The notes under the pieces were generated by a model that was not told the origin of the DNA, did not search any database, and saw only the letters and a program-made list of their open reading frames with translations. Positions 1 through 49,388 of a stretch of 58,109 bases of DNA are shown here, piece by piece (within the stretch, counting starts at the first letter, position 1; each line of letters begins with the position of its first letter). The stretch lies in IMG/VR virus record IMGVR_UViG_3300027983_000019, positions 1 through 58,109 of that record; one strand, written 5' to 3'. The stretch is from a virus. Its lineage: Duplodnaviria; Caudoviricetes. The position numbers were made by a program, and so were the translations under genes.

Positions 1-294
1 TGGTTAATCGATAATTTTGGTGATTTGACACCGGTTGTTGATGGTGATAAAACATTTTATGTTGATGGTAATAAAAAAACAATTTTTTATTATTATCAGG
101 ATGAAGAAAATGGACTTTGTTACGTTAATAATGATGATATATGGTCAGTTTTGAAAACCCGTTTTGGGATTAACTATAATGAAATTCAGAAAGTTACAAC
201 CATGTGGTTGGATGAGGTATACGGATTAACAGGACTCACACCGCCAATGCGCGGCAACCAATATTCCAACCGTTGGATGAGGTATACGGAATAA
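1..294 (+). CDS. 5'-truncated copy of the array-associated small protein family (ends WLDEVYGLTGLTP plus a spacer-encoded tail)
   Basis: Bases 1-242 are nearly identical to 533-774; the true start lies before the window. Confidence 0.85.
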   Translation, partial: WLIDNFGDLTPVVDGDKTFYVDGNKKTIFYYYQDEENGLCYVNNDDIWSVLKTRFGINYNEIQKVTTMWLDEVYGLTGLTPPMRGNQYSNRWMRYTE

Positions 295-21317: not shown

Positions 21318-21695
21318 ATGAAAAAACTTATAAAAAAAATATTAAAAGAATCTGATTTTGATTGGGTTGAGGGTATCCCTGAGGATTTGGTTATACCTGT
21401 TAATACCCCGTTTGTGATTATACTGGATATGACATTAAATACACATCTATGGTCTAAATTACAAAAAAAATTACAGGGTTTTGGGTGGAATTGGCGACAC
21501 ACCACTCATTACTCATTAGAATCTGTGATGTATGATTGTGATAGTGTAGTTGATAAACAGCCTACCTCACTTTCAGGTGGGGAACAATGGGATAGTAATA
21601 AAGGTTATATGGGTGTGTGGTGTAGTGATGAATGGGAAGGAAATATTACCTATTATGGTGAACATGTCTATAAATTATCTGAAATAGTTATATAA
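21318..21695 (+). CDS. Hypothetical protein with the shared N-terminal tag
   Basis: MKKLIKKILKESDFDW. Confidence 0.8.
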   Translation: MKKLIKKILKESDFDWVEGIPEDLVIPVNTPFVIILDMTLNTHLWSKLQKKLQGFGWNWRHTTHYSLESVMYDCDSVVDKQPTSLSGGEQWDSNKGYMGVWCSDEWEGNITYYGEHVYKLSEIVI

Positions 21696-21704
21696 CTTAA
21701 TATC

Positions 21705-22397
21705 ATGAAAAAACTTATAAAAAAAATATTAAAAGAATCTGATTTTGATTGGACTGAGGATATTATAGGTGTGTTCTCACCTGAAATGTTAAGATATGGG
21801 CAAACATTTAAGAATATGTGGAGTCAATATACAAGAATACTAAAATATGTTGGTAAAGATGATGAGGGTGTTAGTTACGAAACACCATTAACTCTTTTTA
21901 ATTTTGAAATTGTGTCGGATGAATCTGACCTTAATTTAGGTATAGAATTAGTACTTAACACCCACGATTTTATTAAATTTATTAAAGATGGTATATTGAC
22001 CCCAATGATTGATGAAGATGATTTTAAATTTTTGAATGAGTCTAATGATTTTGAATGGGTTGAGGATATCCCATCAGCTAGTGAGTATAGGTTTTTCATG
22101 ATTAGTCTTTGTATAGTTAATGATTACGATGAAGAAACACAAATCGATGAATGTCTTGAAGGTCGTGATATCTATGTTAAAATAAATAATTACGATGTTG
22201 ATGTTGATAGTATATGGAGATTCGGGATTGATGATATGGTTGCTTGTGGTGATGATGGTTATGACGTTATTGATTATTTAGAGACACATAACCTTGGTAT
22301 CCCACAATATGATGATTGTGAGGGTGTAACAGAAGTTAGTTTAAGTAGGTATTGTAAATATGGTCACGATACATTCTGTAATGGTGTGAACTGGTAA
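21705..22397 (+). CDS. Hypothetical protein with the shared tag, plus an internal second tag (FLNESNDFEW)
   Basis: First 48 nt identical to the gene at 21318. Confidence 0.8.
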   Translation: MKKLIKKILKESDFDWTEDIIGVFSPEMLRYGQTFKNMWSQYTRILKYVGKDDEGVSYETPLTLFNFEIVSDESDLNLGIELVLNTHDFIKFIKDGILTPMIDEDDFKFLNESNDFEWVEDIPSASEYRFFMISLCIVNDYDEETQIDECLEGRDIYVKINNYDVDVDSIWRFGIDDMVACGDDGYDVIDYLETHNLGIPQYDDCEGVTEVSLSRYCKYGHDTFCNGVNW

Positions 22398-22436
22398 TAA
22401 TCACGGTGACTTATCACCGTGATATATACACATTTG

Positions 22437-22509
22437 TCTCCCCCACGGGCCTCGAACCCGTAACCTTTCCGTTAAAAGCGGAAAGCCCGTCCACTTGAGC
22501 TTCGAAGAG
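22437..22509 (-). tRNA. tRNA-Lys(TTT)
   Basis: Anticodon arm TTCCG-CTTTTAA-CGGAA. Confidence 0.8.
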
Positions 22510-22511
22510 AT

Positions 22512-22550
22512 AAAAAAAGGGACTAAGTTATGATTGACTTAGTCCCTTTT
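22512..22550 (-). terminator. Intrinsic terminator directly upstream of tRNA-Lys
   Basis: GGGACTAAGT/ACTTAGTCCC stem plus T-run. Confidence 0.8.
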
Positions 22551-22624
22551 AGGTGTGGTTGTAATTTTGTTACCTCCAATTAGTCAATCGATTTTCACGA
22601 CTAACCAATTATCGGTTAGTCTTG

Positions 22625-22834
22625 TTACTGTTTATATTTTAATTTATTTACCATAATTTCTACTTTGTTTTTTCTTTTAATCCTTTTAATCTTTAAAGCT
22701 CTTTTATACTTCTCGTTGAACTCTTTACGGAATTCACTTTTAATAACTTCTTTTTCTGAGTTACTTATTTTTCGTCTTAGTTTTAGTTCTTTTAGTAAAT
22801 ACCTCGTACTAAGACCTAATACTATTGTTAACAT
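22625..22834 (-). CDS. Lys-rich small ORF, candidate leader for tRNA-Lys
   Basis: 16 Lys in 69 aa; ends MVNKLKYKQ just before alternative hairpins. Confidence 0.55.
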   Translation of the reverse strand: MLTIVLGLSTRYLLKELKLRRKISNSEKEVIKSEFRKEFNEKYKRALKIKRIKRKNKVEIMVNKLKYKQ

Positions 22835-22856
22835 TTTGTTTTACTCTTTTAATTAG

Positions 22857-22930
22857 AAGTCAGGGAGGGAATCGAACCCCCGTAAATCGGGTTGCAACCG
22901 ACCACCTATATGCCTCTCAGACACCTGACC
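22857..22930 (-). tRNA. tRNA-Cys(GCA)
   Basis: GTCGG-TTGCAAC-CCGAT. Confidence 0.88.
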
Positions 22931-22934
22931 AAAT

Positions 22935-23012
22935 AAAAAGATAGAGATTAACTATATGAGTGTTTTTCCAAATCCAAATTGATGTAACTCACATTACCGC
23001 TTCTATCTTTTT
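22935..23012 (-). ncRNA. Stem-loop RNA sharing a motif with the elements upstream of Ro60
   Basis: GAAGCGGT...GAGTTACATC...ACTC...AATCTC closed by AGATAGA/TCTATCT. Confidence 0.5.
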
Positions 23013-23014
23013 TG

Positions 23015-23089
23015 TGGAAGTGATGGGACTCGAACCCACATAACCTTCTCGTTGCAAACGAGTTGCTCAGCCAATTGAGCTACACCCCC
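23015..23089 (-). tRNA. tRNA-Ala(TGC)
   Basis: CTCG-TTTGCAA-CGAG; G3-U70 pair. Confidence 0.9.
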
Positions 23090-23143
23090 TTAGTGGCGTA
23101 CCTTTGATTTAAGAGAGGGCACTACCGTTTCAACTCTCTATAG

Positions 23144-23757: not shown

Positions 23758-23791
23758 AAAAAACCCTCGACTTGTTATGGTCGAGGGTTTT
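23758..23791 (-). terminator. Attenuator terminator of tRNA operon A
   Basis: AACCCTCGAC/GTCGAGGGTT stem plus T-run. Confidence 0.85.
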
Positions 23792-23822
23792 AGTTTTAAA
23801 TTAATATCTTTTAATATTTAAC

Positions 23823-23915
23823 TTAATACCTAAGGTCTCGACAATTGTGGTTATAACCACAATCAGTTCCCGCTTTCGCGTCACTCGGTTTATATGTCGG
23901 TTTATTAGTTATCAT
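23823..23915 (-). CDS. Leader peptide A: MITNKPTYKPSDAKAGTDCGYNHNCRDLRY
   Basis: Translated by hand; lies between a promoter (23950-23980) and a terminator; core enriched in K, P, Y, D, A, G, C. Confidence 0.8.
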   Translation of the reverse strand: MITNKPTYKPSDAKAGTDCGYNHNCRDLRY

Positions 23916-24090
23916 TGTTTTTGTTTTTTCTTTGTTTATAAATATAGTACAAATGTAGTAAAAGTTATCTTGTAAGTCAAGTATTTTTTTAATTTATTTT
24001 AATATTTCTTTTTTTCCTTTAATTTAGGTCTTAAACCCTCGTTTCTGATACAAATATAAATAACTTATTTTGATAAATCAAGATAAATCT

Positions 24091-26701: not shown

Positions 26702-26753
26702 ATTTTATTTTCTTCCCATACATATAAATATGTGGGAAGTACAAAAACGACCA

Positions 26754-29529: not shown

Positions 29530-29571
29530 TTATTTGTGTTAATTTAAGTTTAATATAAATATACACAAAAG

Positions 29572-29839
29572 TAAATAAGGAAGGAATCGAACCCCCACAA
29601 CCTACTTTATTCGGTTATACCTTTCCGTGGTGACTCGGTTTTATATTATAGTATTATTGTTTTCTTGTACAAATTTTAAGGACCACCTGATTAAGGTAGG
29701 TTATTATCTAACATGGGTATCAACCCGTCCCACGCCATAAACCACTACACCACTCACTTTATATATCTCGGATGCGTTAATTAATGGACTTTTGATTCAC
29801 CATTTCGAAGTACGCGTCTACCATTCCGCCACTCATTTA
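29572..29839 (-). ncRNA. tRNA-like RNA with a large (about 170-190 nt) insertion in the anticodon arm
   Basis: D arm GTGGCGGAATGGTAGACGC and T arm GGGGGTTCGATTCC flank a long structured insert. Confidence 0.55.
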
Positions 29840-29843
29840 TTTG

Positions 29844-29912
29844 TAATTAAGGTTGGACTCGAACCAACGACCTCCCCTAAAGGATTGCTCTAACCAACTG
29901 AGCTACTTAATC
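29844..29912 (-). ncRNA. tRNA-like RNA with a shrunken anticodon arm
   Basis: Canonical D and T arms; anticodon arm reduced to TCC-TTTA-GGG. Confidence 0.6.
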
Positions 29913-30298: not shown

Positions 30299-30767
30299 TG
30301 GTACGGGTGGATGGACTCGAACCACCAAAAACTACTTTTCGGATTACTCTTACTTTTCGTCCACCTCGTCATGGGTTACCCCAAACAAGGCGTGTTTACC
30401 AATTTCACCACACCCGCTTATGTAGTTATTTAACATTGGTACGGAAGAAGGGACTCGAACCCCTAAAAACTACTTTTCAGATTACTCTTACTTTTTCGTT
30501 CACTACCCTAAAGAATAGCGTGTTTACCAATTTCACCACTTCCGTAGTTAAGTCTATACCCCCTCATCCCTCTTCTAATCTTGGGGGTTCCACCTTGTGG
30601 GGTGGATGTGTTTTCATCAAATTCCGTTCAGGTAACGTATTGATTACTATTATTGACTTAGTACATGAGGATGGAATCGAACCATCAAGAACTACTTTTC
30701 AGATTACTCTTACTTTTTCGTTCACTACCCTAAAGAATAGCGTGTTTACCAATTTCACCACTCATGT
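30299..30767 (-). ncRNA. Three related tRNA-Leu-like RNAs with aberrant anticodon arms and a conserved long A-rich variable region
   Basis: Copies at 30299-30417, 30437-30545 and 30662-30767 share GTGGTGAAATTGGTAAACACG and CGAAAA(A)GTAAGAGTAATCYGAAAAGTAGTT; acceptor and T stems covary. Confidence 0.7.
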
Positions 30768-49312: not shown

Positions 49313-49388
49313 TGTTTCTTGTTTTTTATAAGTATACTACAAATATAGTAAAAGTATTCTAATTGTCAAGTATTATTTTTTTTATTTT

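Follow-up and report, generated by a model that had tools for sequence, protein, structure and literature searches.

On the minus strand of IMGVR_UViG_3300027983_000019, a 58,109-nucleotide virus record of IMG/VR that was analysed at its full length and is termed the window below, a lysine-rich open reading frame (ORF69, 22625-22834), a structured spacer and an intrinsic terminator (22512-22550) follow one another directly ahead of the transfer RNA (tRNA) gene for tRNA-Lys(UUU) (22436-22509). The window represents part of a large uncultured phage; it is rated 18% complete, its G+C content is ~31%, and its tRNA genes, 23 by ARAGORN and 24 as Rfam matches, all lie on the minus strand, to which the coordinates below refer unless stated otherwise. 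The tRNA-Lys gene is the last of an array that stands behind a promoter near 23980 and a first, codon-matched leader (module 1). Its upstream arrangement is suggestive of a Lys-responsive, ribosome-mediated transcription attenuator of a second tier, nested in module 1, a reading that is given a probability of roughly 0.45.

Genes and Signals Ahead of tRNA-Lys

The tRNA-Lys gene, which was called by ARAGORN and matched by the Rfam tRNA model at 34.8 bits, is the sole tRNA-Lys found in the window and bears a G-G mismatch at the base of its acceptor stem. The stem-loop of the terminator (22550-22515) consists of 14 pairs around an 8-nucleotide loop, is GC-cored and reaches -18.8 kcal/mol; its seven U comprise the last four stem bases together with 22514-22512, and the tRNA begins 2-3 nucleotides further on. 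The original prediction, made from the sequence alone, had assigned tRNA-Lys a terminator of its own immediately upstream, which is indeed what lies there, and every string that it quoted was located at its position on the minus strand.

Bacteroidota promoters follow the consensus TTG, ~19 nucleotides, TAnnTTTG, and the promoters of the window conform to this pattern in a regular-expression search (TTG-~19 nt-TAnnTTTG); sigma-70 promoter scans of the window gave no enrichment over shuffles. From 23980 to 22436, neither a further TTG...TAnnTTTG promoter beyond that of module 1 nor any sigma-70-like site was found on the minus strand, and a promoter of its own for tRNA-Lys was ruled out by these motif searches. 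This includes the 2-3 nucleotides downstream of the terminator, where a start of transcription had been named by the original prediction as contrary to its proposal. With no promoter in between and so short a gap behind the U-run, tRNA-Lys must be transcribed through the terminator.

ORF69 as a Candidate Sensor Frame

ORF69 comprises 69 codons, of which 16 specify Lys (14 AAA and 2 AAG), and ends with ATG GTA AAT AAA TTA AAA TAT AAA CAG TAA, the UAA lying at 22627-22625. Codons read by tRNA-Lys(UUU) account for 16 of its 68 sense codons, the background fraction being 0.09 (p = 2.5e-4, binomial), a level that none of 20000 random windows drawn from long ORFs attained, while the other four tRNA sets of the window gave p from 0.043 to 0.62. 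The Lys-rich frame that had been noted before the terminator is confirmed, and by its Lys fraction ORF69 ranks first among the 101 non-overlapping ORFs of at least 40 amino acids. The Lys residues are distributed as 8 in the last 22 positions and 8 in the first 47, and AAA codons occupy the positions 6, 4 and 2 codons ahead of the stop (22645-43, 22639-37 and 22633-31). An in-frame AUG at 22654 opens the last nine codons (MVNKLKYKQ) and the stop, and this stretch (22625-22654) represents either the decision window of the frame or a separate mini-leader, for which use of the AUG as a start is putative.

No Pfam or PHROG family matched ORF69, tblastn retrieved no relatives in viral contigs, and among 5.8 billion proteins only three clusters, 96-100% identical to it, were recovered. 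The possibility that its 3' half is a decayed copy of a promoter/leader module was examined by alignment and found unconvincing.

Helices Between ORF69 and the Terminator

The spacer and the terminator contain four segments that can pair in mutually exclusive ways. Segment 1 (GACTAACC, 22614-22621) begins 3 nucleotides past the ORF69 stop and forms the hairpin 1:2 (-11.2 kcal/mol) with segment 2 (22598-22611), which holds GGTTAGTC at 22606-22599 and can pair with segment 3 instead. Segment 3 (22577-22590), holding GATTGACTAA at 22589-22580, pairs either with segment 2 or with segment 4' (AGTCAATC, 22532-22539), which takes in 5 loop bases of the terminator and the 3 uppermost bases of its 5' arm and is the candidate target of an antiterminator, giving a relay of helices 1:2, 2:3, 3:4' and 4:5. 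The pairing of TTAGTC with GACTAA on which the original prediction had built is present, but the 2:3 helix to which it belongs proved far longer, extending over 14 pairs (22611-22598 with 22590-22577) and 3 more (22616-22614 with 22574-22572), and segment 3 is the minimum-free-energy partner of segment 2.

The structure of this region exceeds that of shuffled sequence. Across both strands of the window, GACTAA occurs 22 times versus 31.8 expected, and 5 of the 22 occurrences fall within 22521-22621. Of 5000 shuffles, 66 equalled the 8-nucleotide match of segment 3 to AGTCAATC, scored for the 74-nucleotide spacer against the terminator 5' arm and loop, and 136 of 5000 yielded an 8-bp helix inside the spacer. 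A 136-nucleotide region folded to -39.2 kcal/mol compared with -18.3 +/- 3.2 in 200 shuffles (z -6.5), none of which was as low. It is unlikely that the arrangement of Lys-codon ORF, helices and terminator arose by chance.

Two further elements of the spacer were considered and set aside. The GGAGG at 22577-22573 was rejected as a ribosome-binding site, given that a Shine-Dalgarno core is present at only 2 of 69 ORFs and that the related metagenome contig L011 has GGGGG instead, and a lock in which the spacer would pair to the tRNA ends was rejected as the longest match between the two is 6 nucleotides. Searches of IMG/VR with the exact terminator and hairpin strings returned 0 matches each, and in Rfam (E up to 10, 22380-23020) only the two tRNAs scored above threshold, with no T-box.

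Folding States and Ribosome Position

The energies of the alternative states, whose calculation had been proposed with the original prediction, were -38.7 kcal/mol for 2:3 with the terminator, -36.9 kcal/mol for 1:2 with the terminator and -27.6 kcal/mol for 1:2 with 3:4' at full length. The position of a ribosome was modelled by masking ~12 nucleotides downstream of it on an RNA that ended just ahead of the terminator 3' arm. When the UAA occupies the A site, the mask reaches 22613 and hides segment 1; the optimum is then 2:3, and the terminator arm stays unpaired. When K64 or K66, the first two of the final AAA codons, is in that position, segment 1 remains accessible and 1:2 with 3:4' is optimal, as it is with a mask through 22631; the same fold (-27.6 kcal/mol) is optimal for a stall at 22645-43 and when no ribosome is present.

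In a series of increasing RNA lengths, 1:2 forms earliest, 2:3 becomes favoured once segment 3 has emerged, and 1:2 with 3:4' is optimal when the polymerase stands at the U-run. In the nested model, findpath gives a barrier of 10-11 kcal/mol for the refolding of 1:2 into 2:3, and one of 13 kcal/mol for leaving the antiterminated state in favour of the terminated one. Because equilibrium favours 2:3 and the terminator, the switch would work only if it is kinetically trapped; a barrier of 10-11 kcal/mol could allow the first-formed helix to persist across the ~60 nucleotides that remain to the U-run, and by a rough rate estimate the barrier corresponds to seconds, longer than the time needed to transcribe them, which renders the relay kinetically plausible.

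Codon-Matched Leaders of the Window

Four modules on the minus strand share the layout of a promoter, a leader ORF of 20-32 codons, an intrinsic terminator and a promoterless tRNA cluster. Their promoter units, at 49369, 34801, 28711 and 23980, are near-identical and precede leaders of 20, 32, 25 and 30 codons, respectively; a strong terminator follows 23-31 nucleotides past each leader stop, and the tRNAs behind it leave no room for a promoter. The unit 49369-49193, with the leader MTIITNIERREERETYSHRI, stands ahead of Glu/Arg tRNAs, the unit 34801-34582 places a Thr/Phe/Gln/Val/Leu-rich leader ahead of Gln-Thr-Phe-Thr-Val-Leu-Leu, and the unit 28711-28514 has an Asn/Ile-rich leader ahead of His-Asn-Ser-Ser-Ile-Arg. 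Module 1 (23760-23980), with a leader rich in Tyr, Pro, Asp, Ala, Gly, Cys and Lys, precedes the Tyr...Lys array; it is built from the promoter near 23980 (TTGAC, 18 nucleotides, TACATTTG), the leader ORF30 (23915-23823, with three AAA codons inside), a 6-bp antiterminator (23842-23837 with 23785-23780) and the terminator 23791-23760.

For each leader, the share of codons that each of the tRNA sets can read was compared with the background fraction. Cognate codons made up 16 of 29 in the M1 leader (Tyr, Pro, Asp, Gly, Ala, Cys, Lys; background 0.26, p = 9e-4), 11 of 24 in M2 (0.17, p = 9e-4; the tRNA at 28319-28248 of its set was taken as His(GUG) by hand reading), 19 of 31 in M3 (0.23, p = 5e-6) and 7 of 19 in M4 (0.10, p = 2e-3), whereas all 12 mismatched pairings of leader and tRNA set gave p > 0.2. 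In addition, the last 40 nucleotides of leaders M1-M4 contain copies of the terminator 3' arm of 6, 6, 10 and 7 bp, which were matched in 224, 595, 2 and 47 of 5000 shuffles, and the pairing of leader with terminator arm is part of the nascent-RNA optimum in three of the four modules. The principle of a codon-matched leader is thus statistically clear for four tRNA clusters of the window, and as all four promoter-led tRNA units are codon-matched, the prior for a Lys switch is strongly raised. A literature search found no publication on leader-peptide attenuation applied to tRNA genes.

A second, diverged phage group displays the same layout, in which a conserved leader, whose core contains no residues other than Thr, Tyr, Gln, Pro, Lys and Gly, stands ahead of a Pro-Gln-Tyr-Thr-Gly-Gly-Lys-Lys tRNA array. 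Codon enrichment was observed at six of six related loci tested (p from 1.6e-4 to 0.032), five of which belong to one leader family.

Proposed Mechanism

Transcription would begin at the module-1 promoter at ~23980 and, having passed the first leader and its terminator, proceed through tRNA-Tyr, Pro, Asp, Gly, Ala and Cys into ORF69. If Lys codons are decoded fast, the lead ribosome would reach the UAA at 22627-22625 and cover segment 1, so that 2:3 pairs, the terminator 22550-22515 folds and most transcripts stop 2-3 nucleotides short of tRNA-Lys. If the ribosome lags on the AAA codons, which provide three of the last six sense codons, 1:2 would pair and leave segment 3 free; by pairing with the top and loop of the terminator (3:4'), segment 3 would slow terminator folding, and more polymerases would reach tRNA-Lys. 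We infer that ORF69 is translated, that ribosome and polymerase are coupled and that 3:4' affects termination. Such an element is built differently from the main modules and follows the same codon logic, and is not a fifth copy of them.

Relatives of the Block and of tRNA-Lys

The metagenome contig L011 is 94.9% identical to the window over 1148 nucleotides, and in the ~400 nucleotides from the ORF69 start to the tRNA-Lys end the two differ at 5 positions, namely two amino-acid changes, an A->G in segment 1, GGAGG->GGGGG and one extra U in the run. The G for A at 22620 converts an A-U pair of 1:2 into G-U; the pairs of 2:3, 3:4' and 4:5 do not differ between the two haplotypes. Upstream of the ORF69 ATG, the sequence of L011 is replaced. 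Among contigs from four DNA runs, X4 carried the L011 haplotype and the X7 pieces that of the window, with no further variation, and a blastn search with 22300-23100 against 50,697 phage records returned tRNA-Ala only (48 records, none with at least 80% coverage). A search for expression data that covered 24 runs turned up no RNA run.

The haplotypes also diverge beyond this block. In place of 22856-22940, L011 and X4 have ~199 different bases (L011 81-279) with an 87-nucleotide tRNA-Cys inside, and both are missing the plus-strand ORF 21318-21695.

The tRNA-Lys(UUU) of the window belongs to a family found in other uncultured phages (L003, L007, L008 and L021-L027), whose members share a conserved body and the G-G mismatch of the acceptor stem and show compensatory changes in that stem between phages. 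This unusual tRNA often adjoins a canonical tRNA-Lys(UUU) and may serve as a back-up or a nuclease-resistant tRNA. In the second phage group, its ortholog follows the canonical tRNA-Lys and is the last of the attenuated array, and a 13-codon Lys/Arg-rich mini-ORF precedes the tRNA-Lys pair (L003 2271-2355; L007, L008, L012, L013, L015, L016 and L017). The mini-ORF is open in 8 of 8 variants, a conservation partly forced by the search pattern, and is followed 1 nucleotide past its stop by a conserved hairpin, whose pair beside the stop is A-U, G-C or G-U, with one variant mismatched. As this hairpin has no U-run, it is not an intrinsic terminator. A Lys-rich frame reserved for tRNA-Lys, where this gene closes an attenuated array, thus recurs in a different construction. 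The same hairpin was sought in the window and is absent; its only match in 185,579 genomes was a chance one in a GC-rich metagenome-assembled genome.

Weighing the Proposed Lys Switch Against Other Explanations

Several results weigh against a Lys attenuator, and the inner switch is less well supported than the four main modules. Its antiterminator is the weakest part: of the 14 bases that form the terminator 5' arm, 3:4' takes up just 3, and the mean probability that the arm is unpaired is nearly equal between the states (0.58 versus 0.63). Although the 8 pairs of 3:4' shut out the terminator in the folding models, these are nested and leave pseudoknots outside their scoring, and the 11 terminator pairs beside the U-run could form together with 3:4' as a pseudoknot. 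Moreover, the terminator-bearing states (-38.7 and -36.9 kcal/mol) are more stable than the antiterminated one (-27.6 kcal/mol), and after segment 3 has emerged 2:3 is favoured over 1:2 by 2-5 kcal/mol (-19.4 versus -14.1 to -17.6). The last 40 nucleotides of ORF69 offer the terminator arm a best match of 3 bp, which 4944 of 5000 shuffles matched. The frame is also long, since classical leader peptides have ~14-35 codons and the four main leaders of the window 20-32, and its lead in Lys content is not large, with the next two small ORFs at 20% and 18%; it may simply encode a small basic protein. Comparative evidence comes from two near-identical haplotypes (the window type and the L011/X4 type): the model can accommodate the G-U that replaces A-U in 1:2, yet this change is not compensatory, and the three known amino-acid changes of ORF69 are all non-synonymous, with none at a Lys codon. 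Furthermore, 7 of 9 distinct contexts of the tRNA-Lys family have no terminator just upstream, the two exceptions being the lineage of the window and L027, where it belongs to a first-tier module. The prediction that a ribosome at the stop leads to termination and one stalled on AAA to read-through is partly supported: the choice of fold was reproduced in silico, but the short hold of 3:4' on the arm and the 69 codons weigh against it.

One alternative is an ordinary gene end, at which ORF69 would be a small basic protein with 2:3 as a stabilising hairpin and a terminator of its own, tRNA-Lys would be made by constitutive leak-through, the GACTAA/TTAGTC words would be leftovers of a hairpin duplication and the alternative pairings their by-products. 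We regard this as a somewhat unlikely account, although the global optimum consists of 2:3 with the terminator, the stem of the latter is scarcely contacted by the antiterminator and the 69-codon frame has, by its translation, a hydrophobic N-terminus. Sensor-free elements are moreover at home in the phage: small ORFs occur within the arrays, such as 28495-28325 just ahead of tRNA-His, intrinsic terminators are frequent across the window in terminator scans, and a terminator-like structure without a leader ORF ahead of tRNA-Cys implies that internal terminators also occur without a sensor. What a gene end leaves over is that the most Lys-rich of 101 ORFs stands directly before the sole tRNA-Lys, that its stop lies 3 nucleotides from segment 1 with three AAA in the decision window, and that leader codons are matched to downstream tRNAs elsewhere in the phage; the helices 2:3 and 3:4', at 14 and 8 pairs, also run beyond the shared 6-mer, for which duplication alone is insufficient. 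Control by a phage factor, with processive antitermination overriding all terminators of the tRNA region in the manner of lambda N, or of Q at tR', would make the Lys codons irrelevant. A single override of this kind would cover the leaderless structure before tRNA-Cys as well, and the succession of a promoter, a short transcript, a terminator and genes lacking a promoter, found four times, resembles lambda pR'-tR'. We nevertheless hold it to be improbable, as it explains neither the enrichment of each leader in the codons of its own downstream tRNAs alone nor the copies of the terminator 3' arm at the leader ends; no antiterminator protein and no nut-, qut- or put-like site was identified, although no specific search for them was made. 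There is, finally, a slim chance that the hairpins set the half-life of the messenger RNA (mRNA) instead of controlling termination, with an RNase P cut at the tRNA-Lys 5' end leaving the ORF69 mRNA with a 14-pair hairpin as a shield against 3' exonucleases. The hairpin does end 2-3 nucleotides from the mature tRNA 5' end, and such a role is compatible with every other explanation; a 7-U run after a GC-cored stem, however, is the signature of a terminator, which a shield does not need, and the relay of exclusive helices and the Lys bias would be left unexplained.

Comparison With Known Regulatory Systems

Leader-peptide attenuation is textbook knowledge for amino-acid operons, and its families include trpL, hisL, pheL, thrL, leuL, ilvL and pheM (amino-acid operons and pheST). 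The Lys element resembles them in having product-related codons in frame, a terminator before the controlled gene and alternative helices that a ribosome would choose. It differs in that it would control a tRNA, not an enzyme or a synthetase, in its frame of 69 codons, in four successive exclusive helices instead of three, in an antiterminator that engages the terminator at its top and loop and not along the whole 5' arm, in a host type without Shine-Dalgarno sites, and in its position inside an operon and not after a promoter. The general principle of attenuation that depends on ribosome position is outlined in PMC1183508. With modules 1-4 of the window, the Lys element shares frame codons that match the tRNA behind the terminator and a promoterless tRNA; it has no promoter directly upstream, has 69 codons versus 20-32, serves one tRNA, and has its antiterminator strand in the spacer, whereas that of the modules is in the final leader codons. 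In the second phage group (L003-L019), too, tRNA-Lys closes an attenuated array behind a Lys-rich frame of its own, with the stop 1-3 nucleotides from a hairpin, but this mini-ORF has 13 codons and there is no sequence similarity to the element of the window. T-box riboswitches would be like the Lys element in that they respond to the state of one particular tRNA and decide between terminator and antiterminator; they differ in binding the uncharged tRNA directly, in requiring no translation and in controlling synthetase and amino-acid genes.

The anticodon nuclease PrrC targets tRNA-Lys. A link of the Lys element to PrrC or PARIS, which had been raised with the original prediction, is no more than an analogy. 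PARIS AriB cleaves tRNA-Lys, and phage T5 escapes through its own tRNA-Lys, according to PMC11464382. By this analogy, a two-tier sensor of decoding capacity can be imagined, in which the multi-amino-acid leader would gate the Tyr-to-Lys array and the Lys sensor its last tRNA: the loss of host tRNA-Lys to a nuclease (PrrC, PARIS AriB) would stall ribosomes on AAA, the terminator would be bypassed, and a variant, possibly nuclease-resistant tRNA-Lys would be boosted in a self-triggering counter-defence circuit, which we consider unlikely. Should the Lys element operate as proposed, it would add a second level of control, with one tRNA under its own codon sensor in an already gated operon, and a boost of the variant phage tRNA-Lys triggered by Lys codons would tie the sensing of translation to counter-defence. 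If it is merely a gene end, the dependence of tRNA-Lys expression on terminator read-through has still been mapped.

Neighbouring Features and Further Observations

Upstream of ORF69, tRNA-Ala (23089-23014) and tRNA-Cys (22930-22856), the latter ending 21 nucleotides before the ORF69 ATG, are separated by an 83-nucleotide structured spacer with a U-run at its end. Downstream of tRNA-Lys, a 10-pair hairpin (22398-22421, -17.9 kcal/mol, z -3.5) lies between this gene and a convergent plus-strand ORF ending at 22397, and is probably the end of both transcription units. Its loop is inverted between the haplotypes of the window and L011, with the stem the same.

Within the array of module 1, a 31-codon ORF (23485-23390) with 6 Lys and 6 Gly lies just ahead of tRNA-Asp, Gly, Ala, Cys and Lys; 11 of its 30 codons are cognate to the downstream tRNAs, no terminator follows it, and it is preceded by a hairpin with TATTTATA in the loop, a near-copy of which stands ahead of tRNA-Ser at 26730.

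Elsewhere in the window, three paralogous tRNA-like genes of 106-116 nucleotides with CCA ends (30302-30417, 30440-30545 and 30662-30767) were matched by the Rfam tRNA model and missed by default ARAGORN; when introns were allowed, ARAGORN read one as Phe(GAA) with a 24-nucleotide intron and two with the anticodon TTA and an 11-nucleotide intron. A possible tRNA-Leu(AAG) with a 178-nucleotide intron lies at 29571-29838, and the adjoining 29844-29912 was called by ARAGORN as a tRNA with a 2-base anticodon, which implies a 6-nucleotide loop. The ORFs at 441, 12061, 12444, 25450 and 42416 have near-identical N-termini, with the motif TATTTATA followed by the DNA ATGAACATTAGAAAAATAATAAAAGA or close variants, those of 12061 and 42416 reading ATGGAT..., and the adjoining ORFs 21318 and 21705 share the start MKKLIKKILKESDFDW. 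These ORFs look like a multi-copy gene family with a common promoter and start region.

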